IMG/VR virus record: IMGVR_UViG_3300020196_000019
Strand: one strand, 5' to 3'
From: an uncultured virus (IMG/VR IMGVR_UViG_3300020196_000019)
Lineage: Duplodnaviria; Heunggongvirae; Uroviricota; Caudoviricetes
DNA: 64,000 nucleotides
Below the pieces are notes generated by a model. The model ran no database searches. It had not been told where the DNA came from and saw only the letters and a list, made by a program, of their open reading frames with translations. How positions within the stretch are numbered: the first letter of the stretch is position 1; the number at the start of each line of letters is the position of its first letter. The position numbers and the translations under genes are program-made. Of the stretch, positions 8,015 to 61,722 are shown in pieces.

Positions 8015-9136
8015 CTAATTTAACCTTTCTGTTTTTACAAAAAACAATCTTCCCGGCTCGCTTGCCGACCTAACAATTAACATAGCTCCGGTATCGGAAT
8101 TTACGGCGGACGGTCTTTCTTTTAACCCTCCTTGACCTGTTGTGGGTACTGAAATATTGAATTGATTGCCGATACGAAGAAAGTCTATAAAAACGTTTGG
8201 AGGTTCTTCCGGAGTAGCATTCGGGTCGTTTGGAAAAAAATTAGGTATTCTCGGACTTACAATCTGACTAGAATCAAGATTAGAGTAAGGTTTCAGTTCC
8301 CAATACCCAAAAGTACCCATATCCTCGCCAACCGGAACTGCTTCCGCGCCAGTTCCGTCTTTTAAGAAAAATTGATTCGCATAGGCTGGGCCGTACATTC
8401 CGTAAGGAGTGTTAAACGTAGGAATTGCTTTTTCAATTGCGTTGGCAGATCTTTCGTTGAAAGATTTAAAACTAGACCTAAGATTTTCGATAACACTTAA
8501 AACTTTTCCCTTAAAATTTTTAATGCGCCCAAGCACGTTTAAAGTTAAAAAACTCGATGCCTTTGGAATAGTTGGAGATGTCTGCGCAAATCCGAACTCG
8601 ATAGGCAGTCCGGACGGTTCGTGAGCTCTATCAGAGGCAATTGCGTATACGTCAGTTGCAGTTACAAAACTGTCCGGGGAATTTACCCCGTCTTTTAAAG
8701 TTGTGCCTTGTAAAAGATTAAATAAAACCCCAGCTTGCTCCCCGATTCCCCTTAAAAAATATTCTTTTAACGCAAAATCTACACGAAGACCTCGCGTTGT
8801 TTTTCTGGCTGGTTGCTCCGGAAGTCCGATATTTCTTGGGCGATAGGGGGGAGAAACCTGTGTCCCGGCTTTTGAATCTACTCTCACATAATAAACTGTA
8901 GAAGGAAGCAAATTAGTAACTTCCCAACGAAGACCGGAAATTAATTTTCCATTATAACCCGGATGAAAATTAGATAAAGTATACAAAGTTTCGCCGTCGG
9001 AAAGCTCGGTTTCTGTTAGAGTTCTAGCTACGTACAATACATAGTTTGAGGCTCCCGGCACGGAGGTCCAACTTGCCACAAAAGAAGTTGGGGTAACGTT
9101 TGTAAACGGTTGCAAAATAGGGACGTTCAAGGACAT
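8015..9136 (-). CDS. Virion protein with N-terminal fibronectin type III domain
   Basis: TNVTPTSFVASWTSVPGASNYVLYV...VTNLLPSTVYYVRV is an FN3 signature. Confidence 0.65.
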   Translation of the reverse strand: MSLNVPILQPFTNVTPTSFVASWTSVPGASNYVLYVARTLTETELSDGETLYTLSNFHPGYNGKLISGLRWEVTNLLPSTVYYVRVDSKAGTQVSPPYRPRNIGLPEQPARKTTRGLRVDFALKEYFLRGIGEQAGVLFNLLQGTTLKDGVNSPDSFVTATDVYAIASDRAHEPSGLPIEFGFAQTSPTIPKASSFLTLNVLGRIKNFKGKVLSVIENLRSSFKSFNERSANAIEKAIPTFNTPYGMYGPAYANQFFLKDGTGAEAVPVGEDMGTFGYWELKPYSNLDSSQIVSPRIPNFFPNDPNATPEEPPNVFIDFLRIGNQFNISVPTTGQGGLKERPSAVNSDTGAMLIVRSASEPGRLFFVKTERLN

Positions 9137-37536: not shown

Positions 37537-39333
37537 CTAAAGAGTCTGGTGAAAGATGCTTAGATTGTCAACATCCGAACTAGCTAACAATATGTTAGAT
37601 GAGTCAATGGCCCCCGGGTCCTTCCGTTTAACCACTTGCCGCCAACTGTCTCGTTGGGTTTGTAAGAAAGTCCCAGAAGGATAAAAGCCGTGAACGTGTC
37701 TGGCCACGTCTAAGCATATAAAAGCCGCATCGGCTAAGTCGGGGCTTTTCCCCACCCTACTCTTGTAGTCTACCTTCGGCTCTAAGCGTATCTTTCCGCC
37801 CGCAATAGTCTGATACTTTCGATTGGTCATTTCGGTAGCTAATTGCGGAGTTACTCCTCCAAGTTGAAAGCTGCGGAGAGCTTCCAAGGCGACGTACCAA
37901 AGTTCTGTTGCTCGTAGGTCAAACTTGTCTTTTGCCGGAGTTGGACTTACCGCACTAACAGGAAGATCGGTGGGTTTGTTACCAAATTGCACACGCATAA
38001 TTTGATTGCTCCCAAGAATCTCGGCCAAAATATCGCAGAAGGGAGCGCCGCCGCCTGTTGCGTCAACGCCGATGTTCTTCGGTAAAACATTGTATTTCCG
38101 ACAAAGTTCAAAGACTTGTCGGGCTAATTGAAAGTGCCGTGGGTCTGGGCTTCGCACGTCTTCTACCAAATGAACAAAATCCTCATAGACAAACGTAGGT
38201 ACTCCTGTGGCAATGTTTTTCCCGAGCTTGCCAACACAAGCAATGGTTCTGTCGCCACCACGGCTAAACGAAGGGTCGATGCCCATTACTCGCACAACAT
38301 CTGTAAGGCTAGGTTTGTTTTCCGCATTAAACTTACGGATATCGGCCTCGGAGAACACGCAGTCATCTACCCCTGCGGGGGCCGGGAAGCTTCGTATAAA
38401 CCGCCAAAATTGCAGAGAGTTTTCACCCTCGTAGGCCTTTGCTTCGTTAATTTTTTTTGTGGTGAGTAAATACGGCCAACGATCATCGCTGGTGAGATTA
38501 GGGGACTTCATTCCGTCTAAGTGAAGACACAGACCGAGCTTGGTTTGCCATTCGCCATCTTCCACGGTGACAGAACTCCACCCAGCCTTGGGTTGGCAAA
38601 ACTGCCCAAAGGGGTCGTACATTGATTTAAAATTTCCCAACCCTACAAATTGAAACTCCGGATTAGAGTCGAGATTGTATAAAGCCTCTACGACAGATGA
38701 CGAAATATCAGTCATCTCGTCCACAATCAAATATACTCGTTTTTGTTTCAACCCGATCAACTTTGAGGATGCTTCTTTTTCTTTCTCCGGACTAGATGGG
38801 ATTAGAACTATGGCAGAACGATCTGAGCTTTCCCCCTCGTCCAAGCGAAGAATACCTAATGAATCTACAAGCTTCCCGGGAAGACCGGGAACCGCCAAAT
38901 ATAACTCACGAATAGCCCCCCAAATACGCATCCTCGCTTCTTTCAAACTTGTTGAGGTAACTAACACAAGAGTTTCGGAGGGCGATGCCAGCCAATTTAC
39001 TAAGGCCCAAACTGCCATTGTCTGGGACTTTCCGGAACTCTTGGGGCCGCTGACGGCCATATACTGATTCTCGCACGCCGCTTGCAGCATTTGTTCGGCC
39101 CAAGGATGAAACTCAAAACCGCTTTTAGTTTTTCCTTTGGAAGTATTTATAGGCCAAAGACAAGTGATAATTCTTTTAAGGTGTTCGTATTTGCCCAAAC
39201 CACCAGTTTGCTCGTTTAAACCCTGCCGGAAACAAACCAACTCAATGTCTAAGTCGCTGGCTTCATCCGGCCACACTCTTCCGTAGCGTTCCCGCATATC
39301 TACATATAGTCTCAAAAAATTTTCGTTTGACAA
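37537..39333 (-). CDS. terL: Terminase large subunit
   Basis: Walker A GPKSSGKS, Walker B LIVDE, GN coupling motif, RNase H-like GIDPS...GGD and SPDLADA. Confidence 0.9.
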   Translation of the reverse strand: MSNENFLRLYVDMRERYGRVWPDEASDLDIELVCFRQGLNEQTGGLGKYEHLKRIITCLWPINTSKGKTKSGFEFHPWAEQMLQAACENQYMAVSGPKSSGKSQTMAVWALVNWLASPSETLVLVTSTSLKEARMRIWGAIRELYLAVPGLPGKLVDSLGILRLDEGESSDRSAIVLIPSSPEKEKEASSKLIGLKQKRVYLIVDEMTDISSSVVEALYNLDSNPEFQFVGLGNFKSMYDPFGQFCQPKAGWSSVTVEDGEWQTKLGLCLHLDGMKSPNLTSDDRWPYLLTTKKINEAKAYEGENSLQFWRFIRSFPAPAGVDDCVFSEADIRKFNAENKPSLTDVVRVMGIDPSFSRGGDRTIACVGKLGKNIATGVPTFVYEDFVHLVEDVRSPDPRHFQLARQVFELCRKYNVLPKNIGVDATGGGAPFCDILAEILGSNQIMRVQFGNKPTDLPVSAVSPTPAKDKFDLRATELWYVALEALRSFQLGGVTPQLATEMTNRKYQTIAGGKIRLEPKVDYKSRVGKSPDLADAAFICLDVARHVHGFYPSGTFLQTQRDSWRQVVKRKDPGAIDSSNILLASSDVDNLSIFHQTL

Positions 39334-47580: not shown

Positions 47581-47644
47581 ATTCTGGTTGCTAAAGAGGT
47601 AGGGCAACTCTTTGGGTTGCATATCTGCGTTTAAACACTACAAA

Positions 47645-47852
47645 TGGGGTGGACTTCGACCCTTGGGGTGGACTTAAGAGGGGTGGTTTTTGCTTTTCCA
47701 AGTCGTTGATAACCAATTGCTGGGTGGACTTAAAGGACTTAAATATACTTCTAAAAGAGTTTATTATAATGTATATGTTAAATGCGCTACGGCCCTTGGT
47801 CGCTCCGTCGCCATAGTCTTTTTCCTAAGTCCTAAGTCCTATGTCCACCCCA
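47645..47852. promoter_or_regulatory. Putative replication origin
   Basis: Direct repeats TGGGGTGGACTT and inverted copies flanking an AT-rich core, downstream of the primase. Confidence 0.6.
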
Positions 47853-49439: not shown

Positions 49440-49839
49440 AACTAGCTCTTAGCTGGATTTGCTACCATCTTGGCAACCTTTGGAGCCTAACTTTTCTTCA
49501 GCTTGGCCTTGGCTACCGGGTCTACAATCGTCTTATGATGTGGTCTTCAGATTTGGATACCCGTCAGAAGATTTGGAAAAACGTTTAGCGTCTTTATAGC
49601 GTCTTTAATAAGAGCCACGGCTATTTAAGAAAAAAGCCGATCCCTAAAATAAAATTTTTTTTTATTGTATGGGAGTCAACAATTCGCGTATGCGGGCGCG
49701 GGTGGGGGGTGGAGGGGTCGTAGGCCACAGAAAGAGGCAGGGGTGGCCGTTAAGGGCTACGCCCTTAAAACTTCGATTTGTCGTACAATAGGCATTATAT
49801 CAACTACGTTGATATAATCTTGATGGACAACGCCTTCGT

Positions 49840-50373
49840 TTAACCTGCTTTAGCAGGGTTAAACGGCAGATCGATCAGCGGTTTGGGCGGATTTGAAATC
49901 GTATCCGATTTCAAATTGGGAGTCGATGCCAGAAAAGCTACATTGATGATTGGCCTATTGTCAGTTCTACCCTGTTGATTCTCAAGACCATAGACTGACT
50001 TTGCAACATTGTGAACTTTATTGAGGGCATTGAAAGTTGTATCTACTTCATTTACAGAGACCATTGAAGATTGTTCTATTGCATTGATTCCACGATCAAC
50101 CTGTTTCTGCACCCTTTCCAGATAGCGTTTCTGTAAATTAGCAACAGAATCCTCTACAATGGATTGCTGAATTGCAATAGCTCTCTCTGCTGTTTCTCCG
50201 TGAACTTGTTCCCGTTCCTTGTCCCATTTACCCCGAAACACCCAACTACATATTGTGCCATAGGAGATATTATACTTCTTAGCTAAGTCCTTGTTAGTCA
50301 GTCTTGTAGTCAGATATGCAATCTTAACTTGCTCTTTTACATTCTGCCCAACCCTCACTCTCTTCTCACTCAT
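49840..50373 (-). CDS. Putative terminase small subunit
   Basis: N-terminal HTH (LTNKDLAKKYNISYGTICSWVFRGKW), helical core, YGL...IINV tail. Confidence 0.6.
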   Translation of the reverse strand: MSEKRVRVGQNVKEQVKIAYLTTRLTNKDLAKKYNISYGTICSWVFRGKWDKEREQVHGETAERAIAIQQSIVEDSVANLQKRYLERVQKQVDRGINAIEQSSMVSVNEVDTTFNALNKVHNVAKSVYGLENQQGRTDNRPIINVAFLASTPNLKSDTISNPPKPLIDLPFNPAKAG

Positions 50374-50379
50374 AGGGCT

Positions 50380-50408
50380 ACTCTAACAATTACTTACAGA
50401 TATTGCAA
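50380..50408 (-). promoter_or_regulatory. Sigma70-like leaderless promoter of the terS-like gene
   Basis: TTGCAA-N17-TAGAGT-N6-ATG. Confidence 0.55.
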
Positions 50409-50452
50409 CATCAGACCGAGCGTGTGCGTATGGAGGAATGGTTTCGCCGTCC

Positions 50453-50508
50453 CACCCTTTAGGGTGTCACGCAAAGTTCGTTTAACCGCAACCTAGGAGG
50501 CAACGATG
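50453..50508 (+). repeat. Early element copy 1 (hairpin-TGTCACG-N12-AACCGCAACCTAG-RBS)
   Basis: CACCCT-TT-AGGGTG tcacg caaagttcgttt AACCGCAACCTAGGAGG caacg ATG. Confidence 0.9.
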
Positions 50509-50572
50509 ACCAACGGCAAGTCGCCATCAGCAACTAGCCAGAGGGCATCCCAACCCAGAAAGAATCAAATCT

Positions 50573-50674
50573 ATGACAACCTATGAAACTGACTTCAATG
50601 ATCTCTGTGAATTGTTCGGAGTTTCCTTCGAGGAGAAGGAGATCGTGGCGATCAACCCTCCGTATTCTGAGTAA
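50573..50674 (+). CDS. Small hypothetical protein (33 aa)
   Basis: MTTYETDFNDLCELFGVSFEEKEIVAINPPYSE, below the track cutoff. Confidence 0.4.
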   Translation: MTTYETDFNDLCELFGVSFEEKEIVAINPPYSE

Positions 50675-50714
50675 TCAGTAGACCACAACTGATTATTTAC
50701 TAGGAAAACTTAAA

Positions 50715-50737
50715 CTCCCCCTCGGGGGAAAAGGAGA
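50715..50737 (+). repeat. RBS-hairpin repeat copy A
   Basis: CTCCCCCTCGGGGGAAAAGGAGA. Confidence 0.9.
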
Positions 50738-50745
50738 ACACGACT

Positions 50746-50976
50746 ATGAGTAAGAAGCACTTCGAGAAGATTGCTTGTGTATTGGCAAATAACTCTGACC
50801 AGAAGGCCAGAGAATCCTTAACGAAAGATATGATTGCATTCCTTGGAACCACCAACCCTCGCTTCAACCCCTTCCGTTTCATCGAAGCTGTAGAGACGCT
50901 GGCGAAGGGTCAGAGACCGAGCGGTTTTTCCAAGGCGACCTTCGACCACTACTTCGTAGTGTCACGAGCCGTTTAA
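50746..50976 (+). CDS. Early hypothetical protein
   Basis: MSKKHFEKIA...NPRFNPFRF; strong RBS. Confidence 0.7.
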   Translation: MSKKHFEKIACVLANNSDQKARESLTKDMIAFLGTTNPRFNPFRFIEAVETLAKGQRPSGFSKATFDHYFVVSRAV

Positions 50977-50991
50977 CCAACCGCAACCTAG
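50947..50991 (+). repeat. Early element copy 2
   Basis: CACTAC-TTC-GTAGTG tcacg N12 AACCGCAACCTAG; no immediate RBS. Confidence 0.9.
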
Positions 50992-51017
50992 AAAGCGAAC
51001 CGACAACCGAAACCAAC

Positions 51018-51040
51018 CTCCCCCTCGGGGGAAAAGGAGA
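51018..51040 (+). repeat. RBS-hairpin repeat copy B
   Basis: CTCCCCCTCGGGGGAAAAGGAGA. Confidence 0.9.
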
Positions 51041-51046
51041 CTGAAA

Positions 51047-51331
51047 ATGCTAATCACAAATCCAGTATTGCGTATGGCGAAACTCGAAGCCTTAGAAGCG
51101 AGACTCTGTATGCCGTCCAAAGGCTCCGTGCCTAGCTGGCTCGGGGACTCTGACCTACGCAACAGGGAGAAGAGGCTTGCCCATAGCCAAGCCGTCTCTG
51201 ATCGTCAGAGAATCGAAGGAGCTTGCGTCCTTGCCTTGCAAGGCAAACGGCTGAAGGAATGTGCCTCTGCCTACCGCTTGCAGGATAAGAAGACCATCAA
51301 AGTCGCCTTCCACTACAAACCCAAACAATAA
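51047..51331 (+). CDS. Early hypothetical protein
   Basis: 94 aa, strong RBS. Confidence 0.65.
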   Translation: MLITNPVLRMAKLEALEARLCMPSKGSVPSWLGDSDLRNREKRLAHSQAVSDRQRIEGACVLALQGKRLKECASAYRLQDKKTIKVAFHYKPKQ

Positions 51332-51336
51332 CCAAC

Positions 51337-51359
51337 CTCCCCCTCGGGGGAAAAGGAGA
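51337..51359 (+). repeat. RBS-hairpin repeat copy C
   Basis: CTCCCCCTCGGGGGAAAAGGAGA. Confidence 0.9.
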
Positions 51360-51369
51360 ACACACCTAT

Positions 51370-51477
51370 ATGACACCAGAACTATATCAAACCCTCGATG
51401 CAACCCTTCGCTACGGATTCCCCGCCTTCGTCACTCTGTTAGTGGCGTATGCGTGGTGGAGTTCACGGCGAAAATAA
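51370..51477 (+). CDS. Small single-TM protein (35 aa)
   Basis: MTPELYQTLDATLRYGFPAFVTLLVAYAWWSSRRK after the RBS repeat. Confidence 0.6.
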   Translation: MTPELYQTLDATLRYGFPAFVTLLVAYAWWSSRRK

Positions 51478-51481
51478 CCCC

Positions 51482-51537
51482 CACTCTTTAGAGTGTCACG
51501 CAAATCGAGTTTAACCGCAACCTAGGAGGCAACTATG
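51482..51537 (+). repeat. Early element copy 3
   Basis: CACTCT-TT-AGAGTG tcacg N12 AACCGCAACCTAGGAGG. Confidence 0.9.
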
Positions 51538-52134
51538 CAAACCAAAACCCGAGAACAATGGCTACAAAAGGCAGTCTCCGTCATTGGAGATCGCCTATTC
51601 ACCCCGAAAAACTTACCCCTACCCGAGAAAGTCCGAGTCAGCGTAGGGTGGCCAGGAGGTCGTGCGGACAAGAGTAAGGCAGTCGGCCAGCATTGGAAAC
51701 CTACTGCCTCGAGTGACCAGCATCACGAGATATTTATATCTCCCAAGATTGCTGACAACTCAGAGGAGATTCTAAGCACCCTTGTCCACGAGCTTGTCCA
51801 CGCTCAGTTGTATGCTGAGTATCCTACAGAGGGACACGGAAGACATTTCCGTAGGGTAGCAGAGGCAGTTGGCCTTGTCGGAGACCCAACCTCCGCAGGG
51901 GCATCACCCGAGCTACGCTCAGGACTATTCAAGGAGTTCCTTGCCCTCGAGGGGAATTGTCCCTCGGGTAGCATCGATTACTCCACCCGTAAGAAGGATG
52001 GAACCAGACTGATTAAGGCTGAGTGCAACGCTTGTGGATACGTCATCCGCACGTCCCGCAAGTGGATAGAAGACATTGGACTCCCCATCTGCAAGTGCGG
52101 AGGAGAGTTCCACGAACCCGAGAAGGGCGAATGA
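51535..52134 (+). CDS. SprT-like zinc metallopeptidase with C-terminal Zn ribbon
   Basis: HELVH, GHGRHF, CNAC...CKC. Confidence 0.75.
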   Translation: MQTKTREQWLQKAVSVIGDRLFTPKNLPLPEKVRVSVGWPGGRADKSKAVGQHWKPTASSDQHHEIFISPKIADNSEEILSTLVHELVHAQLYAEYPTEGHGRHFRRVAEAVGLVGDPTSAGASPELRSGLFKEFLALEGNCPSGSIDYSTRKKDGTRLIKAECNACGYVIRTSRKWIEDIGLPICKCGGEFHEPEKGE

Positions 52135-52202
52135 CCCACCACTACTTCGTAGTGTCACGAAAAGTTTGTTTAACCGCAACCTAGGAGGCAACGATGAACA
52201 CC
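52131..52202 (+). repeat. Early element copy 4 (72-bp exact repeat)
   Basis: Identical to 52412-52483. Confidence 0.95.
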
Positions 52203-52412
52203 ACCGAACGAAAACAATTCGAGGCAGACCTCTTCCACACTTGGCAGAGGCGAGCCACTACCGCAGAAGCCGAGAACATCCGACTAAGGAAGATCATCCA
52301 GAACATCGCCCCAATCTTCAGCCAGAGGCTTGAGGAGGTGCTTGCCAGCCTTGAGCGGGACGAACGGCGACAGGCTAACCCGCATTGGACTGACAAATAC
52401 CATAGGCCGTGA
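52194..52412 (+). CDS. Early hypothetical protein flanked by 72-bp direct repeats
   Basis: 72 aa, AGGAGG RBS. Confidence 0.7.
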   Translation: MNTTERKQFEADLFHTWQRRATTAEAENIRLRKIIQNIAPIFSQRLEEVLASLERDERRQANPHWTDKYHRP

Positions 52413-52483
52413 TGACCCACCACTACTTCGTAGTGTCACGAAAAGTTTGTTTAACCGCAACCTAGGAGGCAACGATGAACACC
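52412..52483 (+). repeat. Early element copy 5 (72-bp exact repeat)
   Basis: Identical to 52131-52202. Confidence 0.95.
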
Positions 52484-53584
52484 TACAACCTAACCCACAA
52501 CCAACTGAGAGCGGAGTGTGCAAAGCGACTGATCGGTTCGCCCAAGTGGCGAGCCAACGCATCGCCTACAGAGCTACGCACCGCTCTCTTGAAAGCCGAT
52601 TCCGCCAAGGGTGATTACTCACCCGCAACGGAGCAACCCCAACCCCAACCCAAGGAGACCACTACTATGCCCGAAGCATCGAAGCCCGAGGCCGTTCCGC
52701 CTTCCACGGATGCCCTCGCCAACACGCTCTTGCAAGTGCTACTGCCTCACTTGCCCCAGCAAGGAGTTCAAGAGGCACGTGTTCGTCAGATCGTCAGCGA
52801 GATCATCGAGACCAGACTTCCCAAGGAAGTTAAGGTCAAGCTCCCCGACGGCACAGAGAACAAGGTGGGAGTTGTCCACGAAGCGTTTAACCGCATCCTC
52901 CAAGCCGTCTCTGCCGACATTAGCGGTGGCATTCTGCTAGTGGGCGGAGCGGGGAGTGGCAAGACCACTACCTGCCACAAGGTAGCGGAGGCTCTTGGCC
53001 TACCCTTCCGCACCATCAGCGTGTGTAAGCAGACTACGCTCTCCCATCTGATGGGATTCATTAACGTGAGTGGGGAGTATGTCACTACCCCCTTCCGTGA
53101 AGCCTATGAGAAAGGTGGCGTGTTCCTCCTCGATGAGTTCGATGCGGGCAACGAGAACGTAGTTCTCTCGCTCAACTCGGCTCTCGCCAACGGAATATGT
53201 GAATTCCCCGACAAGCAAGTTCAACGCAACCCCAACTTCCGTTGTATCGCTTCGGCCAACACCTACGGCACAGGGGCGACCCTCGCCTTCGTAGGTAGGA
53301 ACAAGCTCGATGGTGCTACCCTCGACCGCTTCGTTGTCATCGAACACGACTACGACACGAAGCTCGAGTATGCTCTCTGTGGCAATCAGACTTGGGCGGA
53401 CAGGGTTATGTCCATCCGCAGGGCTATCGACAAGCTCAACATCCGTCACATCGTCAGTCCCCGAGCGTCCATCAACGGAGCCAAGCTCCTTGCCCTCGGA
53501 TGGAAGCAGAGCGAGGTGGAGCAAGCGTGTGTATGGAAGGGCTTAGATAAGAGCGAGGTGCAGAGAGTCCTCGCCACCCTCTAA
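52475..53584 (+). CDS. MoxR/CbbQ-like AAA+ ATPase
   Basis: GGAGSGKT, LLDEFD, ASANTYG, LDGATLDRF, VSPRA. Confidence 0.85.
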   Translation: MNTYNLTHNQLRAECAKRLIGSPKWRANASPTELRTALLKADSAKGDYSPATEQPQPQPKETTTMPEASKPEAVPPSTDALANTLLQVLLPHLPQQGVQEARVRQIVSEIIETRLPKEVKVKLPDGTENKVGVVHEAFNRILQAVSADISGGILLVGGAGSGKTTTCHKVAEALGLPFRTISVCKQTTLSHLMGFINVSGEYVTTPFREAYEKGGVFLLDEFDAGNENVVLSLNSALANGICEFPDKQVQRNPNFRCIASANTYGTGATLAFVGRNKLDGATLDRFVVIEHDYDTKLEYALCGNQTWADRVMSIRRAIDKLNIRHIVSPRASINGAKLLALGWKQSEVEQACVWKGLDKSEVQRVLATL

Positions 53585-53634
53585 AGAGGGTGTCACGTAA
53601 ACCCAAAGCAACCGCAACCTAGGAGACAACGATG
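53575..53634 (+). repeat. Early element copy 6
   Basis: CACCCTCT-AA-AGAGGGTG tcacg N12 AACCGCAACCTAGGAG; hairpin contains the ATPase stop codon. Confidence 0.9.
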
Positions 53635-54516
53635 AGCAAACGTTCAAATGCAACCAATGACGGAAGTGCAGGAAAGGTGTATCCACTCACCTACCAGCGG
53701 TTCCTCGAGATCGCTACCGACCCCGACCCTGCGAACAAGTGCAGATACCCGCATTCAATTACTCAGAATGCGACCAGCAAAAGCTGGGCGGACGGCACAA
53801 GCTATGAGCAGAGCATCACCCGCCTACGCCAAGGTTGGCCAGAGGGTGTAGCCAAGGCTCGGGAGTTGGCCTCCAAGCTCGAGAGCCGTTTAACCGCTGA
53901 GTATAGCTTCGCAACCGATACAAAGTGGGATGTGACGGGCGACTACTTCGACATTGGGCGAGTTCTCGAGGGAGAACCCGACTGCTGGGCGAGCGACATA
54001 GAATTGGACGACCAGTTCTCTAACGATAAGAAGGGCAAGATCGTGAGGGTATTGGTGAACGTAGCCGTCTCCGCTCACTACAATGCGGACATTCTCCTCG
54101 AGCGTGGCGTGTATGCCCTCGCCATCGTGGACTTGCTTGAGCGGATGGGCAAGAGCGTGGAGCTAGTTGCCAGTTGCAAGCTCGAGTATAACGGCAAGCG
54201 GTGGGCTTGGGAGTTGCCTTTGAAGCAAGCTGGCGAGGAGCTATCGATGGACAGAGTAGCCTTTATTGTCGGTTCCCCCGCTGGCTTTCGTAGGAGTTGG
54301 TTCCGAGTCATCACCCACACCGACTACCCCGACAGCGGAATGAGTTTGGGTATGCCCACCGATTGGACAGAGGAGGAGCTACGCAAGAGAGAGGTGGACA
54401 TCTACGTCGGAGCGTTGATGAGCGGACGCACACCTTGGCAGGGCAAGACTGATCTAGGGTTTATCATCAAGCAACTCGAGACAGCGGGCATCAAAGTCTC
54501 GAAGGAAGCGGTTTGA
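53632..54516 (+). CDS. VWA-like partner of the AAA ATPase
   Basis: Follows the MoxR-like ATPase; GDYFDIGRVLEGEPDC and VRVLVNVAVS...VDLLE..G patterns. Confidence 0.55.
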   Translation: MSKRSNATNDGSAGKVYPLTYQRFLEIATDPDPANKCRYPHSITQNATSKSWADGTSYEQSITRLRQGWPEGVAKARELASKLESRLTAEYSFATDTKWDVTGDYFDIGRVLEGEPDCWASDIELDDQFSNDKKGKIVRVLVNVAVSAHYNADILLERGVYALAIVDLLERMGKSVELVASCKLEYNGKRWAWELPLKQAGEELSMDRVAFIVGSPAGFRRSWFRVITHTDYPDSGMSLGMPTDWTEEELRKREVDIYVGALMSGRTPWQGKTDLGFIIKQLETAGIKVSKEAV

Positions 54517-54532
54517 GGTTAGGTTAAGGGTG

Positions 54533-54567
54533 CTGATGTCATAGGGTTCGATTCCCTATGGCATCGG
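54533..54567 (+). other. Hairpin with tRNA T-loop (TTCGATT)
   Basis: GATGTCATAGGG-TTCGATT-CCCTATGGCATC. Confidence 0.75.
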
Positions 54568-54571
54568 TTAA

Positions 54572-54599
54572 ACGAAACACGAAACACGAAACACGAAAC
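54572..54599 (+). repeat. Tandem heptamer (ACGAAAC)x4
   Basis: Read directly. Confidence 0.9.
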
Positions 54600-54614
54600 A
54601 TTAACGGAGGTACA

Positions 54615-54803
54615 ATGAAACACGTTCGCTACTACAACCTACGAGAATTACAGGACATCGCAGAGAGCGAGGGCTTTTCACTTACGGAAGCTCCCAAGGA
54701 AAAGAAAATCTTTATTTCTAAGGAGGAAGATACGGATGACTTCGGTTATTTCGAGCAAGTGTCAAAGGACAAGTACATCTTCAAACTTTTTTGGGTTGGA
54801 TAA
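54615..54803 (+). CDS. Early hypothetical protein, paralog of 56900-57076
   Basis: GGAGG RBS before ATG 54615. Confidence 0.65.
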   Translation: MKHVRYYNLRELQDIAESEGFSLTEAPKEKKIFISKEEDTDDFGYFEQVSKDKYIFKLFWVG

Positions 54804-54824
54804 AAACAAAGGAGAATAACTACA

Positions 54825-55121
54825 ATGTCATCCCCCTATTCCATCTGCAAAGCAGACCGCATCCACCGCAAAATCCTCGTGCTGACCCGCCTTGCCCGCA
54901 GGTTCTACGAGGAGAACGAAACCGATAAACTCTGCGAAATCCTCAGCGATGCCTTGGACACCACTCTTCGGAACATCGAAGCCGTCGTGGACGCACATTG
55001 CGAGCATACGCTCTTGACTGCCCTCCTTCGCAATCCGTACACGGCGAGCTTTTACGACGTGGACGAACTCTGTTGTCTTCTTAACGTCCCAAACTCGAAG
55101 TCCCAAACCACTACTTCGTAG
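54825..55121 (+). CDS. Early hypothetical protein
   Basis: AAGGAG RBS. Confidence 0.65.
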   Translation: MSSPYSICKADRIHRKILVLTRLARRFYEENETDKLCEILSDALDTTLRNIEAVVDAHCEHTLLTALLRNPYTASFYDVDELCCLLNVPNSKSQTTTS

Positions 55122-55164
55122 TGTCACGCAAACAAACTTCAACCGCAACCTAGAGGGCACAATG
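55109..55164 (+). repeat. Early element copy 7
   Basis: CACTAC-TTC-GTAGTG tcacg N12 AACCGCAACCTAGAGGG. Confidence 0.9.
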
Positions 55165-55413
55165 ACAACCGACAAACACAATCCCACCTTTACGATGGAC
55201 AACATCAACCAGTACATCGACAGCCGTGTGGAGCAACTGCAAATGTACATCTCCGACTTCCAACAACAATCCCTGCGAGCGAAGGGCGAACACTTTCGTA
55301 ATCTTTGCTCGATGATCGGAGACTACAACGGACGGAAGATGGAGCTTATTACCTTGCAATCCAACTTTCGCCTCGGAGTATACAACCCCTTCAAAGCACC
55401 ACCGAAACACTAA
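55162..55413 (+). CDS. Early hypothetical protein
   Basis: 83 aa after the element. Confidence 0.65.
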   Translation: MTTDKHNPTFTMDNINQYIDSRVEQLQMYISDFQQQSLRAKGEHFRNLCSMIGDYNGRKMELITLQSNFRLGVYNPFKAPPKH

Positions 55414-55432
55414 CCAAAAGGAACGAAACACT

Positions 55433-55840
55433 ATGAAACGAACCCGAACCATTGAAATCGAAGACACGCTACCAGAGCGGGTAGAACAAGCCATCGAAGC
55501 GGTTAAACAGGAGCTTCTCAATTACCTTGAGGAGAATCCCAACCAACGCAGAACGCCGTGCATCAGCAACACCTTGGACTACAGCGGAACCATCCACGAA
55601 ATCATTGATAGTGCCGTGCCCATCTACACCCGAGAGATCAACGACACTTGGTATCTGCACGGAAGCGAACTCGAGGAAGCCTACGAAAACGCTGGCCTCG
55701 GGCACAACCCTCGGGAAAACAACGGAATGGTAGCCATCTACTGCTTCATCTCCGACAGGGTACATAATTGGTACAATAACAATGCGAGCGACATCTTCAA
55801 CGAATGGAAGGAGAAGCAAGATGAAAAAGAAACTGATTAA
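55433..55840 (+). CDS. Early hypothetical acidic protein
   Basis: 135 aa; HEIIDSAVPIYT motif. Confidence 0.65.
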   Translation: MKRTRTIEIEDTLPERVEQAIEAVKQELLNYLEENPNQRRTPCISNTLDYSGTIHEIIDSAVPIYTREINDTWYLHGSELEEAYENAGLGHNPRENNGMVAIYCFISDRVHNWYNNNASDIFNEWKEKQDEKETD

Positions 55841-56027
55841 CTATATGCTTGACGTTGCCTTCACCATCGAAACGCCCATCTCGAATTGGTACGACATTCC
55901 CGCCATCGACCTTGTGGATGCCTTGCAACGCAGGGTGGACTACCTGCGAGAGAATCTTGATGAGGCGGGGGATGCCTTTGGACTTTGCGATAGCTACGAA
56001 ATCGAAACGGAGGAAACAACCAAATGA
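55821..56027 (+). CDS. Early hypothetical protein
   Basis: AGGAG RBS before ATG 55821. Confidence 0.6.
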   Translation: MKKKLINYMLDVAFTIETPISNWYDIPAIDLVDALQRRVDYLRENLDEAGDAFGLCDSYEIETEETTK

Positions 56028-56206
56028 AGAAATACAGAATCGAAGCAACCGCCGTCACCACCTACGAGCTTATCGTAGAGGCAGACAGCAAAGAAGAAGC
56101 CATCAAGAAAACTCTGAACGGAGAACACGCCGATTGTTGGGAAGCCATAGACGAAAGTTCTTTCGACTATGACAAGGCTTCCGTAGAGGAGTTGTCCGAA
56201 GAATGA
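56024..56206 (+). CDS. DpnD/PcfM-like small protein
   Basis: MKKYRIE...VEADSKEEA. Confidence 0.55.
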   Translation: MKKYRIEATAVTTYELIVEADSKEEAIKKTLNGEHADCWEAIDESSFDYDKASVEELSEE

Positions 56207-56523
56207 AGAAGCAATACACCCTGCTGAACGGAGAACAACAAAACTCCGAACACCCATCCTTCCATATCCCAACCTTGAAAGAGCGGTTAAACGTCAAGCC
56301 AGACACCTACGTAAAACTTTGCTTTCGCATACTGAATCCCAAGAAGGACAAGCCTTCGGGAGAACGTATGTGGGTGAAGGTACTCTCAACGACCCCCATT
56401 GGAGGGGAGTACGAGGGAGCCTTGGCAAACCAACCCTTCTTTGCGAAGGGCATCAAGTTCGGTAGCAGGGTTCAATTTTCTGCGAAACATATCATCGACA
56501 TTCAACCCCCCGAGGAGGAATAA
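56203..56523 (+). CDS. DUF2314-like protein
   Basis: GERMWVKV...YEGALANQP...G..V.F...HIID. Confidence 0.55.
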   Translation: MKKQYTLLNGEQQNSEHPSFHIPTLKERLNVKPDTYVKLCFRILNPKKDKPSGERMWVKVLSTTPIGGEYEGALANQPFFAKGIKFGSRVQFSAKHIIDIQPPEEE

Positions 56524-56527
56524 CAAC

Positions 56528-56674
56528 GTGAACACGGACAAAAACTTTCTCGAACATCTTTGGGAGAAGCGGGTGCAAGAACTCGAAGCGGAGGGATGCA
56601 CCACCTCTGACGCACAGAGCATAGCAGATGCAGAGATGGAAAAGAATGCAACTTGGGGATGGGCAAAGGAATGA
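56528..56674 (+). CDS. Small hypothetical protein
   Basis: GAGGAGG RBS, GTG start; ELEAEGCTTSDAQ motif. Confidence 0.55.
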   Translation: MNTDKNFLEHLWEKRVQELEAEGCTTSDAQSIADAEMEKNATWGWAKE

Positions 56675-56898
56675 ACGGCATCACAGAAGAACGCTTGCTG
56701 GGCATCCTTGAGTACGTGAAGGACAACGAAGCCCTTCCAGAACTCTCCACCCACGAAGACGAACAACTTGTCGGGCGAAACAAACTAGTTTGGGACTACG
56801 AAGTGTGGAGCCGTGGGTACTGGCTCACCGACAAGGGCGTGGATTGGATGACCAGCCTACGCAACGCAAACATTCAACCTGAAAACGTGGAGAACTAA
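56671..56898 (+). CDS. Early hypothetical protein
   Basis: ATGA overlap; YWLTDKG winged-helix-like tail. Confidence 0.55.
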   Translation: MNGITEERLLGILEYVKDNEALPELSTHEDEQLVGRNKLVWDYEVWSRGYWLTDKGVDWMTSLRNANIQPENVEN

Positions 56899-56899
56899 A

Positions 56900-57076
56900 A
56901 TGTATACACTTGAACAAATTAGCCAGCTTGCCGAGGAGTGGGGATGGAAGACCACTAGATGTTTAAACGACTTCGAGGATGCCGTGCTTATCAGCACCCA
57001 TCGTCACGAGGACTACTTCGGGCAATTCGACAAACAGGAGGACGGAAGATTCAACTTTCGTTTCAAGCAACTATGA
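56900..57076 (+). CDS. Early hypothetical protein (58 aa), paralog of 54615-54803
   Basis: MYTLEQISQLAEEWGW...DYFGQFD; below the track cutoff; GGAG RBS. Confidence 0.6.
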   Translation: MYTLEQISQLAEEWGWKTTRCLNDFEDAVLISTHRHEDYFGQFDKQEDGRFNFRFKQL

Positions 57077-57309
57077 GCCTACCAATTATTACGCAAGGAA
57101 ATGTACGCACAAGTGACGGACAACTTCACTACCTGCTCAGCCGTCAGAAGCCTATGGGCTTTGCCCTCACGGAAGAGCGGGTAGGCAAGGCTGACCGCTT
57201 TGTGATTCGGGGAACCGACTTTTCCGATTCCGAGCAGTTTACCATTTGCGAACTATATGCAGGTGAGGAACTTGTGCCCATACACTCGGAGAAAATACAG
57301 GGCTACTAG
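57073..57309 (+). CDS. Early hypothetical protein
   Basis: ATGA overlap. Confidence 0.55.
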   Translation: MSLPIITQGNVRTSDGQLHYLLSRQKPMGFALTEERVGKADRFVIRGTDFSDSEQFTICELYAGEELVPIHSEKIQGY

Positions 57310-57315
57310 CCGACC

Positions 57316-57371
57316 CATTACTACGTAATGTCACGCAAATCGACTTCAACCGCAACCTAGGAGGTACAATG
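57316..57371 (+). repeat. Early element copy 8
   Basis: CATTAC-TAC-GTAATG tcacg N12 AACCGCAACCTAGGAGG. Confidence 0.9.
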
Positions 57372-57803
57372 AGCAACCAAACTGACGAACAAAAAATGGA
57401 ACAACTGGCTAAGATTCTCACGGACTTTGCCGAAAATAACAACATCCCGCCCTACTTACGCTGGGGCTTGCAGGTGCTATTCGTGGCGGGTAGCGACAGC
57501 ACCGAGCGTAGCAACGTGGTAGCAGGGCTAATGAGTGTGGGGGAACGAGCCTTCGACAAAGCCATCGAGAAGATTAAAGCCTCGGGCGATGCGGAGGGAG
57601 GGGAGAAGCTGATTAACGACAAGGCACAGATGCTCAAGATGGCTATGGCCATTGACCTTGCAGGGGCGATGGCATCCCTATTGAAAGGCAAGCTGGGCGA
57701 GGCTGGAAAAGACGTGATAGTAGCCGTTGCTTCCGAACCCTCGAAACCCGAAGCAGTCTTCCCGTACAAAGGCAAGGATAACCCCTTTGCAGGGAGGAAC
57801 TAA
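57369..57803 (+). CDS. Early hypothetical protein
   Basis: 144 aa after the element. Confidence 0.7.
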   Translation: MSNQTDEQKMEQLAKILTDFAENNNIPPYLRWGLQVLFVAGSDSTERSNVVAGLMSVGERAFDKAIEKIKASGDAEGGEKLINDKAQMLKMAMAIDLAGAMASLLKGKLGEAGKDVIVAVASEPSKPEAVFPYKGKDNPFAGRN

Positions 57804-58916: not shown

Positions 58917-59137
58917 TGGCTACATTGATTAACAAGCGTTTGTTTAAACAGCATTTGTTGAGCCTGTCGGCTCTCAATGCGTCCAAGCGAAACGAAGCAC
59001 GAAGGGAGATGGGTTTACTGGCGAACCTAAAGCCGTGTACCCGAGTCTCGGAAGAGACCTACAACGAGGCGACTTCTACCTTGTTGAATTGGATGAAGAA
59101 CCACGTCATTGAAACCAAGAAGGGGAAAACACTATGA
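58916..59137 (+). CDS. Small basic protein, possible histone fold
   Basis: LINKRLFKQHL...TRVSEETY...LLNWMKNHV...KGKTL. Confidence 0.45.
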   Translation: MATLINKRLFKQHLLSLSALNASKRNEARREMGLLANLKPCTRVSEETYNEATSTLLNWMKNHVIETKKGKTL

Positions 59138-59280
59138 GCAAAACAAAAACAATAACACCCATAATGGTTGAGGATTGGCTTAAAAGCGAAGCCTGTTCTT
59201 ATCAAATCTTGGCTGACGTGGCAAATGGCAAATTAAAACCTTCAGAGTTAAAAGAAGATATTTCTATTTACATAGATAAC
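59134..59280 (+). CDS. Small hypothetical protein
   Basis: ATGA overlap; MSKTKTITPIMVEDWL... Confidence 0.5.
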
Positions 59281-59294
59281 GAAAGGAGTTCACG

Positions 59295-59483
59295 ATGAAG
59301 AAGCAACCAATCAAAAACTTTATCGCCAAGCTGGAAGCGTTGGCCGATGAGTTGCGGGACTTGCGAGATAGCAAGGTTAATCCTTGCAAAGATGAAAATG
59401 TAGAGGGCGTATGCCCTTGTCACACCTTCGATCAAGCAATTGACCACATCGAAAACACACAACAGATACTTAAAACTCTATAA
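59295..59483 (+). CDS. Hypothetical protein
   Basis: AAGGAG RBS. Confidence 0.55.
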   Translation: MKKQPIKNFIAKLEALADELRDLRDSKVNPCKDENVEGVCPCHTFDQAIDHIENTQQILKTL

Positions 59484-59498
59484 GAAAGGGAAAACACT

Positions 59499-60077
59499 AT
59501 GAGCAAAACCAAAACAAAAACCAAAAAGAAAGTTAATCCGTACGACAGCATTCCATTCGGAGCAACCGAGGAGCAACACGAAGTTCTTCGGGAATGGCTT
59601 GACCTCGATGCAAAGAGCGGAAGCGGATGGAATCCGCATAGCTACAGGGGCAAGAACGATATTCTAACCAAGCACAATCGGAAAGCCCTACAGAGAGCCT
59701 TCGACAAGTATAAGATTAAAAACGTTGTCGTTGAGTTTGATGGATGCGGAGACAGCGGACAAATTGAGCAGGTACTTGTCAATGGAGAGACCTACGAGAA
59801 TAGAGCTTCTCAAACTGCGTACGACTTCATTAGCCACACAGGCTCCACTTATTGCGGAGACGGAACAAGAAACCACGGCTGGGCGTTGAATCCAAGCCTG
59901 TACGATGCCATCGAATCGTATTGCTACGGCATCCTAGAGGGGGAACACGGCGGATGGGAGATCAATGGTGGCTCCTTCGGCAGTTTCAACTTCCAGAACA
60001 AGAATGGGAAGTTTACCTGCACACTCGAAATGAACGAGCGTATTGAGGAGACCCATAGCTCCACGGAAAGCTACTAA
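59499..60077 (+). CDS. DUF6878-like protein
   Basis: VEFDGCGDSGQIE and GWEINGGSFG motifs. Confidence 0.65.
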   Translation: MSKTKTKTKKKVNPYDSIPFGATEEQHEVLREWLDLDAKSGSGWNPHSYRGKNDILTKHNRKALQRAFDKYKIKNVVVEFDGCGDSGQIEQVLVNGETYENRASQTAYDFISHTGSTYCGDGTRNHGWALNPSLYDAIESYCYGILEGEHGGWEINGGSFGSFNFQNKNGKFTCTLEMNERIEETHSSTESY

Positions 60078-61001: not shown

Positions 61002-61504
61002 GTATTTGTAAGAAGTTCTTTGCGAAGTATTTGCCCAAGGGTGTGAAGAATAAGTGCAACCAGTTGGGAAAGCGTTATCGCCGTTTGGAAGACAGAGACG
61101 AGCGGAACGATACCGATGACTTCCACGGAAGCGATGAGCCAAGCGAAATCCGCGATAAGATTATCGCGTTGATGGAGCCAGCGGTTAAACGCTACGCCAA
61201 AGATTTGTTCAGTCCGAAGGCGTTGGAAAAAGCTGATTACATCTCTATGGAGGGAGAGTTTGTAATGACCGAATCTTTCGGTGATGACAGCATTGAATTT
61301 TTCTGCGTAAAGCGTAGGAAATTAAAAGGGCATCTGGATGGTCTTGAACAAGGCTACGTGGCAAGCGTACGCACAAGTTATTGGGACGCTCCCGAATGGA
61401 CTTGTGACGATTCCACCGCAGTTCCCACCTTGGGCGAAGCCTTCGAGTGGGGCTTCGGGGACGCTATGGCGTACCATTTTATTAGCGAGGAGGTGCGTAC
61501 GTAA
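60998..61504 (+). CDS. Hypothetical protein
   Basis: 168 aa, ATGA overlap. Confidence 0.55.
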   Translation: MSICKKFFAKYLPKGVKNKCNQLGKRYRRLEDRDERNDTDDFHGSDEPSEIRDKIIALMEPAVKRYAKDLFSPKALEKADYISMEGEFVMTESFGDDSIEFFCVKRRKLKGHLDGLEQGYVASVRTSYWDAPEWTCDDSTAVPTLGEAFEWGFGDAMAYHFISEEVRT

Positions 61505-61528
61505 ATACGTACGAGCTACTTATGCAAA

Positions 61529-61559
61529 TGTCACGAAAAGGGACGGCAACCGCAACCTA
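61529..61559 (+). repeat. Early element copy 9 (hairpin displaced)
   Basis: TGTCACG aaaagggacggc AACCGCAACCTA; hairpin CGTACGTA-AA-TACGTACG at 61496-61513. Confidence 0.8.
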
Positions 61560-61569
61560 TAGGCAAAGG

Positions 61570-61722
61570 ATGAAGAAGACGGAAAAGACTAGGGAGAAGA
61601 ACGCAAAGGCTATCGTGATTGCCCATCTTATTCTTAACGGACAACGAATTAACTTCGGGAGAGACAAAGACCTAAAGCGTAGGACTTCGATTGCTCTCGA
61701 AACAATGATGGAGAGACTATGA
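61570..61722 (+). CDS. Small hypothetical protein
   Basis: ATG after element copy 9. Confidence 0.5.
   Translation: MKKTEKTREKNAKAIVIAHLILNGQRINFGRDKDLKRRTSIALETMMERL

Follow-up and report, generated by a model that had tools for sequence, protein, structure and literature searches.

A covarying hairpin fused to a two-block, promoter-like box precedes early genes of an uncultured lake-water phage

The stretch of DNA analysed here, IMG/VR record IMGVR_UViG_3300020196_000019 (64,000 nt, about 64 kb; hereafter the window), belongs to an unclassified, uncultured tailed phage whose only source is lake-water metagenomes, and its early region carries a repeated cassette in which a perfect hairpin is fused to a two-block box. 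Nine such units were found, all on the plus strand and all before genes, between 50.4 and 61.6 kb and nowhere else in the window. The order within a unit is perfect hairpin, TGTCAC(G), an 18-nt gap counted from GTCAC, CAACCTA, ribosome site and ATG, with the TG of TGTCAC(G) shared with the last two bases of the hairpin. Comparison among related phages supports the hairpins as a selected structure linked to a promoter-like signal ahead of early genes. The explanation that we place first, tentatively, is that the units are early-gene cassettes resembling the PeSLs (early promoter plus stem-loop) of T4-type phages, with a clade-specific bipartite promoter box that is similar to those of extracytoplasmic function (ECF) sigma factors and would be read via some specificity factor.

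The repeated cassette and its copies

The hairpin CACTACTTCGTAGTG occurs exactly at 50947–50961, 52140–52154, 52421–52435 and 55109–55123, and CATTACTACGTAATG at 57316–57330 (cassettes 2, 4, 5, 7 and 8; Table 1). A pattern covering both sequences gives 9 matches, counted on both strands of the near-palindrome, against 0.86 expected, and 9 matches were reached in none of 100 shuffles. On the minus strand the CACTACTTCGTAGTG sites read C-GAA-G and the CATTACTACGTAATG site reads C-GTA-G. In 8 of the 9 window copies CAACCTA is followed, within 13 nt, by GGAGG-like bases and an ATG, and in cassette 2 a 64-nt leader with a CCCCCTCGGGGG hairpin and a ribosome site precedes the ATG at 51047. Cassette 1 is the first of the series and stands back to back with the divergent gene of a helix-turn-helix (HTH) protein, and the hairpin loop of cassette 6 contains the TAA stop codon of the AAA gene. 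Cassette 9 has no abutting hairpin; a separate 7-bp hairpin (61496–61513) lies 16 nt upstream of its box, so that hairpin and box are separable modules.

Table 1. Coordinates of the cassettes and associated genes in the window
Feature	Coordinates	Strand	Details
Cassette 1	50453–50508	+	hairpin CACCC-TTTA-GGGTG 50453–50466; TGTCAC 50465–50470; CAACCTA 50489–50495; GGAGG; ATG 50506
Cassette 2	50947–50990	+	hairpin CACTAC-TTC-GTAGTG 50947–50961; CAACCTA 50984–50990; inside the 3' end of the open reading frame (ORF) 50746–50976
Cassette 3	51482–51537	+	hairpin CACTC-TTTA-GAGTG 51482–51495; CAACCTA 51518–51524; ATG 51535 (SprT-like gene)
Cassette 4	52140–52196	+	hairpin CACTAC-TTC-GTAGTG 52140–52154; CAACCTA 52177–52183; ATG 52194 (72-aa ORFan)
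Cassette 5	52421–52477	+	ATG 52475 (AAA/CobS-like ATPase)
Cassette 6	53575–53634	+	hairpin CACCCTC-TAAA-GAGGGTG 53575–53592; CAACCTA 53615–53621; ATG 53632 (DUF7192 gene)
Cassette 7	55109–55164	+	hairpin CACTAC-TTC-GTAGTG 55109–55123; CAACCTA 55146–55152; ATG 55162
Cassette 8	57316–57371	+	hairpin CATTAC-TAC-GTAATG 57316–57330; CAACCTA 57353–57359; ATG 57369
Cassette 9	61496–61572	+	box only: TGTCAC 61529–61534; CAACCTA 61553–61559; ATG 61570
HTH protein, 177 aa	49840–50373	-	N-terminal HTH (YjcR/small-terminase-like or regulator); divergent from cassette 1
Giant ejection (polyvalent) protein, first 346 codons	3–1040	-	complete form P0010, 4302 aa

Three further early-region lineages were obtained from metagenome contigs: L013, L011 and a G001-like lineage (L009, L010, L015). 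G001 itself is one complete IMG/VR relative (80,254 nt, CheckV 100% complete), collinear with the window and circularly permuted, at about 67–85% DNA identity. Cassettes 4 and 5 of the window are 100% identical over 72 nt (52131–52202 and 52412–52483), and between them sits a 72-aa ORFan (52194–52412, plus strand) that is absent from the interval between the SprT-like and AAA genes in both L013 and G001.

Three small early genes have a different GC hairpin, CCCCCTCGGGGG-AAAAGGAGA, immediately ahead of their ribosome site (50717–50737, 51020–51040 and 51339–51359; 0 copies expected by chance).

Fixed spacing and lineage-specific variation of the box

The two blocks of the box are held at an exact distance. 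In the window, L013 and L011 lineages all 18 distinct cassettes have 18 nt between GTCAC and CAACCTA, and all 9 of the G001/L009 lineage have 17 nt (17 nt in 18 rows and 16 nt in 9 rows, respectively, when the gap is measured from the heptamer to CAAC), and the gap is variable in sequence despite its fixed length. Such exact spacing across a gap of changing sequence is the hallmark of a DNA signal with two sites. TGTCAC is found in 26 of the 27 cassettes, the remaining one having GGTCAC. The bases that precede CAACCTA are constant per genome, being CCG in the window and L013, CTT in L011 and mostly CCT, GCT or ACT in G001; such uniformity within genomes and difference between them would be expected if one trans-acting factor co-evolves with all of its sites. 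An IMG/VR search with the window-type box pattern returned only a chance match, in a microvirus, and a looser pattern returned G001 together with 47 chance loci.

The phage also has sites of the sigma-70 type, such as TAGGCA-18-TATAAT at 49789–49818, in which the spacer is a conserved 7-bp inverted repeat with a TAC loop, and their presence elsewhere indicates that the box belongs to a different signal class. A sigma-70 scan found no plus-strand site in any cassette; its one minus-strand call there (GTGACA-17-TATTTT, 51499–51471) overlaps cassette 3. Minus-strand sigma-70 promoters were rejected for want of a conserved -10, and sigma-54 because the sites have neither the GG of TGGCAC nor a TTGC. 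The T5/LUZ24-type nick-site consensus was likewise dropped, as similarity to it is limited to the CACTAC variant. Because GGAGG follows CAACCTA directly, at Shine-Dalgarno (SD) distance from the ATG, any transcription start would lie at or before the end of CAACCTA, which fits a promoter conserved to +1 more readily than a classical -10 element.

Selection and covariation of the hairpin

The cassette set comprises 27 distinct sequences from the window, L013, L011, L014, G001, L009, L010 and L015. A perfect hairpin of 4–7 bp whose 3' arm ends on the G of GTCAC is present in 23 of them, with a loop of 3 nt in 17 and of 4 nt in 6. By comparison, shuffling of the upstream 21 nt produces an abutting hairpin in 1.5% of cases, 24 of the 1379 TG dinucleotides on the plus strand between 39401 and 64000 carry such a hairpin, and of the 47 loci in unrelated IMG/VR contigs that match the linear box by chance, many being copies of one another, none has it.

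Covariation was assessed in the cassettes that have a 6-bp stem and a 3-nt loop (15 of 27), which align without gaps; the other 12 were omitted solely because their arms fall in other columns. All 90 of the 90 stem cells are Watson–Crick pairs and none is G-U, with changes on both sides at four of the six pairs and one-sided (G-U) changes at none. The covariation score was reached by 0 of 500 shuffles, and slid registers are only 17–42% paired. At the site before the MSNQ gene, CATTAC/GTAATG in the window corresponds to CATTCC/GGAATG in L011. At the site before the DUF7192 gene the 5' arm doubles as the final codons of the AAA gene (A-T-L-stop), and the synonymous changes read from the aligned rows (ACC/ACT, CTC/CTT/CTG) are mirrored in the 3' arm.

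The loops are diverse (TTC, TCC, TAC, GTA, TTA, ATA, TTTA and TAAA) and differ at orthologous sites, with TTC, TTC, TCC and TAAA before the AAA gene and TAC, TTC and no hairpin before the MSNQ gene; three sites in all retain the box without an abutting hairpin. Because the anchor of the 3' arm is always the G of GTCAC, longer or shorter stems (4–7) and loops (3–4) move the loop relative to the box. On the template strand 13 of the 23 rows, corresponding to 6 of the 15 distinct hairpins, have a GNA loop closed by C-G; on the coding strand GNA occurs in 2. A stop codon within the loop accounts for four of the non-GNA loops. The computed RNA stability of the hairpins ranges from -2.2 to -10.8 kcal/mol, and no U-tract follows. 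All-Watson–Crick stems fit a role at the level of DNA and do not prove it; the template-strand GNA excess, centres that are A/T-rich or GNA and the lack of wobble pairs are together suggestive of such a role. Intrinsic terminators were rejected as an explanation given the weak stems and the missing U-tract, and RNase III sites because the stems are too short.

A proposed bipartite promoter, compared with the PeSLs and ECF41

PeSLs, as the relevant passages of PMC2839356 describe them for the T4-type phages RB49 and phi1, consist of a repeated early promoter, a stem-loop, an SD sequence and an ATG, with the stem-loop between, on or upstream of the promoter boxes; they flank ORFans and recombine. 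The cassettes described here are likewise repeated intergenic units of about 60–100 bp before small early genes, with SD and ATG at the 3' end. ORFan flanking and the homology for gain or loss of a cassette are also shared, here in a single case, the 72-aa ORF between cassettes 4 and 5. The two systems differ in their promoters, as that of the PeSLs is a strong sigma-70 consensus, whereas TGTCAC-N17/18-CAACCTA is unlike TTGACA/TATAAT. They differ also in the stem-loop, which in the PeSLs is G/C-rich and terminates transcription, and is here short, weak, entirely Watson–Crick and fused to the box at a fixed base. The layout of the box recalls the ECF41 promoter, given in a passage of PMC3426412 as TGTCACA-n16-CGTC: in both, a -35-like heptamer, here TGTCAC(G/C), is followed after a spacer of 16–17 nt by a short second block. 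That second block is (G/T)CAACCTA in place of CGTC, and no ECF sigma gene was found in the phage.

On this explanation, TGTCAC(G/C) and CAACCTA would form a bipartite promoter of ECF41-like layout. Bacterial core RNA polymerase would read it with the help of a dedicated specificity factor, which the phage may encode or induce. As an accessory module, the hairpin may insulate the box from read-through out of the upstream gene, or attenuate that read-through. It may also modulate the box, as pairing buries the first two box bases, and it may supply homology for the shuffling of cassettes.

Several findings weigh against the promoter reading and keep it tentative. None of the 24 runs listed with this sequence is recorded as RNA. 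CAACCTA is unlike the ECF -10 motif CGTC, and if it served as a -10 element the start would fall past a GGAGG that stands at a proper Shine-Dalgarno distance. Neither a sigma factor nor an activator or RNA polymerase was identified for the box. A search of G001 gave 0 candidates for Sigma70_r2 and, for Sigma70_r4_2, only a 12-bit match below the cut-off in the HTH of the 177-aa YjcR-like protein. The hairpins, weak and without a U-tract, would be poor terminators, no plus-strand terminator was called at any cassette, and cassette 1 has a hairpin though no plus-strand gene lies upstream of it. The bias of GNA loops towards the template strand, the A/T-rich or GNA centres and the lack of wobble pairs are also left unexplained by this reading. 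In addition, no sigma or polymerase family was recognised among 28 ORFs scanned from the plus-strand block of G001, including the part that is missing from the window.

Comparison with the hairpin promoters of N4

The original prediction took the template-strand triloops as suggestive of N4-like hairpin promoters and raised the possibility of a virion RNA polymerase. Its readings of the DNA are exact: the minus strand has CACTAC-GAA-GTAGTG in copies 2, 4, 5 and 7 and CATTAC-GTA-GTAATG in copy 8, the loops of copies 1, 3 and 6 (50453–50466, 51482–51495 and 53575–53592) are TTTA, TTTA and TAAA, and, as it argued, a cUUCGg tetraloop would break the stem, all pairs being kept only with a triloop. 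Three of the perfect triloop hairpins in the first 7 kb of N4 are distinctive, GTTGC-TTC-GCAAC at 90, AAGAAGC-TCC-GCTTCTT at 557 and AAGCTGC-TCC-GCAGCTT at 4546, each with a GC-rich heptamer and T-rich bases after the stem. These are presumably P1–P3, judged from the description in passages of PMC4496689 rather than from an annotation. They lie 52, 13 and 41 nt ahead of the ATGs of gp1, gp2 and gp15, so the 40 nt between hairpin and ATG found here do not bear out the earlier caveat that the hairpin stands further upstream than in N4.

Applied to the cassettes, an N4-like mechanism would have the template-strand hairpin extruded from supercoiled or single-stranded DNA and read by a polymerase that is delivered with the DNA or is otherwise phage-specific. 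Transcription would begin some 11 nt from the loop, inside the conserved TCACG, and CAACCTA would belong to the leader. Much of the local geometry agrees with this. Both systems place a stem of 5–7 bp with a 3-nt loop before early genes, with conserved bases following the hairpin. The commonest loops are those of the three N4 hairpins, as coding-strand TTC or TCC closed by C-G gives C-GAA-G or C-GGA-G on the template, and C-G-closed d(GNA) loops are very stable in DNA according to passages in PMC3201870 and PMC13037366. The strand bias of the GNA loops and the stems without G-U pairs point the same way, and the ruler of N4 would put the start within the invariant TCAC(G). The gene order also recalls N4, since in both phages the late operon, convergent with the plus-strand genes, ends in the gene for a very large virion protein, and the N4 virion RNA polymerase (vRNAP) is itself a polyvalent protein as described in part of PMC5512222.

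The likeness ends at the features by which N4 promoters are recognised. The N4 polymerase reads a loop whose centre is fixed at -11, together with the flanking bases (-10G, -11G, -12A, -9C and -8G; passages of PMC4496689), and N4 has an invariant GC-rich heptamer with a required -8G. Here it is the base of the stem that is fixed, to TCAC; the loop-to-box distance floats, the loops vary at orthologous sites, one form of the heptamer is AC-TTC-GT, and A or C stands where N4 has -8G. At the entering end of its genome N4 has three sites, whereas nine are spread over 11 kb here; three sites of the cassette set lack the hairpin, and the cassettes have a second conserved block 18 nt further on. Of the claim of N4-like promoters, selected hairpins of the N4 size class with its commonest loops thus stand, and a conserved loop, a fixed loop position and a hairpin at every site do not. 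We consider N4-like promoters very doubtful, the more so in view of the searches for a polymerase that follow.

Search for an RNA polymerase in the giant ejection protein and other proteins

The giant gene, the last of the late operon, is cut by the left edge of the window. Its G001 homologue, P0001, has 3795 aa, and a search with P0001 returned P0010, whose residues 1–346 are 100% identical to the cut gene; P0010 (4302 aa) is thus the complete ejection protein of the window phage. In Pfam it matches LPD38 (E 3e-38) and DUF6861, with a weak ART-PolyVal match in some relatives, and in PHROGs only three families of unknown function, all in the last ~900 residues. PHROG 2206, the N4 vRNAP family, matched N4 gp50 and not P0010 in the same search. 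Giant proteins of Vibrio phages, Ralstonia phages and short-tailed Stx phages share the C-terminal module (945 aa). This module is generic, occurring in at least 307 polyvalent proteins with cargo such as methylases, SNF2 helicases, ART, zeta toxin, lysozyme and XRE; PF00940 was found in none of the 120 listed among them. P0010 resembles the LPD38 polyvalent proteins treated in part of PMC5512222 in its LPD38 domain and in this module, shared with 2793-aa Stx-phage proteins, and in the ART-PolyVal of some relatives. It differs in its length, in lacking the HExxH peptidase motif and in a lineage-variable central cassette of ~980 aa.

In ten giants, P0010 and nine relatives, conserved N- and C-terminal parts flank this central cassette (P0010 ~1651–2631), which is bounded by LGAA motifs. 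The (L/I)LGAA motifs of P0010, at 1104, 1488, 1650, 2631 and 3352, coincide with the borders of conserved and variable blocks and may be processing sites. In G001 the block 1651–2631 is replaced by a 562-aa block with an HD/RelA-SpoT-like domain. Lineages with the same promoter box have different central cassettes, which makes the central cassette an unlikely source of a cognate polymerase. A polymerase fold may yet be present in the unannotated modules of the giant; by size, contiguous stretches of more than 700 residues are limited to residues 1–760 and the generic C-terminal module.

Direct searches for polymerase features in these proteins were negative. Neither phmmer with P0001 and P0010 against the PDB nor a profile of the giant family (no chain at E up to 1) gave a match, and a hidden Markov model (HMM) of six giants scored N4 gp50 negatively. 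Motif B (Rx3Kx7YG), present in N4 gp50 at 1663, is absent from 10 of 10 giants; DxDGD occurs in no six-frame ORF of at least 100 aa in the window or G001, and the giants have no conserved DxDxD. A six-frame search with PF00940 for a T7-like RNA polymerase gave 0 candidates in G001, with N4 as a control in which gp16 (E 1e-14) and, faintly, gp50 (E 0.007) were found. AlphaFold2 on P0001 residues 2136–2850, a conserved unannotated module, gave an unusable model from a 9-row alignment (mean predicted local distance difference test score 49.3), and the ESM Atlas returned no usable match for P0001 residues 1000–2900.

BLASTP of N4 gp50 against P0010 produced one weak C-terminal alignment of 316 aa (E 0.023), for which the family HMM gave no support and homology is not claimed. 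A tblastn search of 42 window proteins against N4 returned only the DNA polymerase and two very weak matches inside gp50; one of these, with the SprT-like zinc-peptidase early protein (51535–52134), falls in the gp50 metallopeptidase region (27% over 77 aa, E 0.002). Among other large proteins, PDB sequence searches with those of 1060, 1407, 1035 and 722 aa found nothing relevant. The 1060-aa protein, with 2 representatives in 1.84 billion proteins, has an Rx3Kx7YG-like string at residue 962 that lies 85 residues from the C-terminus and was taken as chance. At the level of sequences and profiles, the proposed virion RNA polymerase is not supported, no such domain having been found in the complete ejection protein or in the other proteins examined. 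GNA-type triloops and a giant ejection protein alone do not indicate an N4-type virion polymerase.

Weighing of the other alternatives

Next after the promoter reading we rank an element acting in RNA, which we regard as unlikely. Long RNAs would start at host-type promoters such as that at 49789–49818, and the cassette would be a processing site, a stabiliser of 3' or 5' ends or the site of a translational regulator ahead of each ribosome site. Long transcripts are plausible given the few plus-strand intrinsic terminators, every copy lies on the sense strand, and the short distance to SD and ATG is fixed in 8 of the 9 window copies. Many copies have an A/U-rich gap downstream of the hairpin, and the three-copy CCCCCTCGGGGG hairpin shows that RNA hairpins before start codons recur in this region. 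Set against these points, the exact 17/18-nt spacing of two short single-stranded blocks across a variable gap would be unusual for an RNA site, and the complete lack of G-U pairs in the covariation set is not what an RNA stem would lead one to expect. Several hairpins are marginal as RNA (-2.2, -4.2 and -4.5 kcal/mol) and fall into no stable RNA loop class, no Rfam family matched, and the stems are too short for RNase III. An operator- or stoperator-like role comes third, and we hold it to be very improbable: a phage DNA-binding protein would bind TGTCAC...CAACCTA in duplex DNA and switch the early region off or on. Candidate binders are the divergent 177-aa HTH protein, whose gene beside cassette 1 has its own sigma-70-like promoter as read from the sequence, and a 94-aa HTH-like early protein (51047–51331). 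Many sites of one orientation in short intergenic gaps, the near-palindrome GTGTCAC and the uniformity of the box within a genome would all suit a phage-encoded binder; yet the sequences of the two blocks are unrelated and show no symmetry, operators need neither a covarying hairpin nor a fixed link to SD and ATG, and the HTH protein resembles a small terminase or a YjcR-type protein.

One further reading, rather improbable in our view, keeps the cassettes as promoters and assigns them to a specificity system beyond the reach of present sequence libraries. This would be a new sigma-like factor, or a polymerase within the conserved unannotated modules of the giant or a small early protein, that would recognise a DNA hairpin anchored at its base beside TCAC.

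Phage, relatives and neighbouring features

The longest contig of the window phage, in a protein collection, has 78,490 nt. In the window, the late operon occupies 1–39333 on the minus strand and includes the large terminase (TerL; PHROG 2), portal-sized and capsid-sized genes, CHAP and amidase-like lysis functions, fibre-like proteins of 1035 and 1407 aa and the 1060-aa protein, which has no annotation. A replication module on the plus strand (39.4–47.4 kb) encodes a resolvase, a helicase, a DUF2800 nuclease, a family A DNA polymerase and a primase-like protein, and the plus-strand block of small genes begins at 50.4 kb.

A blastn search of INPHARED with 50400–57400 gave 0 matches, and protein-guided scans of IMG/VR found G001 as the only close relative, L019 and L020 being distant (25–27% DNA polymerase identity). 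Among 185,579 species genomes the only TerL relatives were L076 and L077 (39–42% identity), on contigs of metagenome-assembled genomes (MAGs) labelled Blastopirellula sp. and Opitutae, which is a hint only of a Planctomycetota/Verrucomicrobiota host range for the wider group. The box pattern had 0 matches in these two MAGs, and a literature search on a Planctomycetes promoter consensus yielded nothing useful.

Further features were recorded in and around the early region. A large non-coding region at 49440–49870, also conserved in G001, contains a T-run and a G-rich tract (~49690–49745), the sigma-70-like site at 49789–49818 and a 12-bp inverted repeat CGTTTAACCTGC-TTTA-GCAGGGTTAAACG (49837–49865) where the YjcR/small-terminase-like gene has its 3' end; it may be a packaging or control region. 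At 47640–47740, right after the primase-like gene, three to four GGGTGGACTT repeats lie beside an A/T-rich stretch and may be the iterons of a replication origin. Two copies of a 40-nt direct repeat (59117–59156 and 59482–59521), 93% identical, span the ribosome site and first codons of two adjacent small genes. A tRNA-like fragment with a T-arm (GGTTCGATTCC loop) occurs at 54520–54610 in the window and at 8050–8125 in L002, with CGAAACA repeats after it. Its stem shows compensatory differences between the window and G001, ARAGORN called no tRNA in it, and Rfam gave a weak mascRNA/menRNA (tRNA-like) match at 54529–54565 (26.5 bits, below gathering).

A short palindrome-related motif is also frequent. 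CGTTTAAMC is over-represented on both strands, mostly within genes (32 matches against 1.65 expected), with sites of this type at, for example, 482–491, 18073–18082, 39213–39221 and 47628–47636. Palindromic GTTTAAAC sites number 17 in the window and 34 in G001, and GTTTAAMC numbers 56 and 95, respectively; it is present in the gap of many cassettes and provides a stop codon in only 3 of 56 cases.

Implications

To our knowledge, few phage promoter classes are known beyond sigma-70, T7-like and N4. Should the box prove to be a promoter, an unrecognised specificity factor would be implied, and if a base-anchored hairpin were itself recognised, this would be a second independent invention of hairpin-dependent promoters beside that of N4. 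The signal of this clade, whose known members all come from lake metagenomes, is compact, a covarying hairpin fused to a two-block box that varies by lineage, and it offers a handle for early genes, and possibly for host links, in related uncultured phages.

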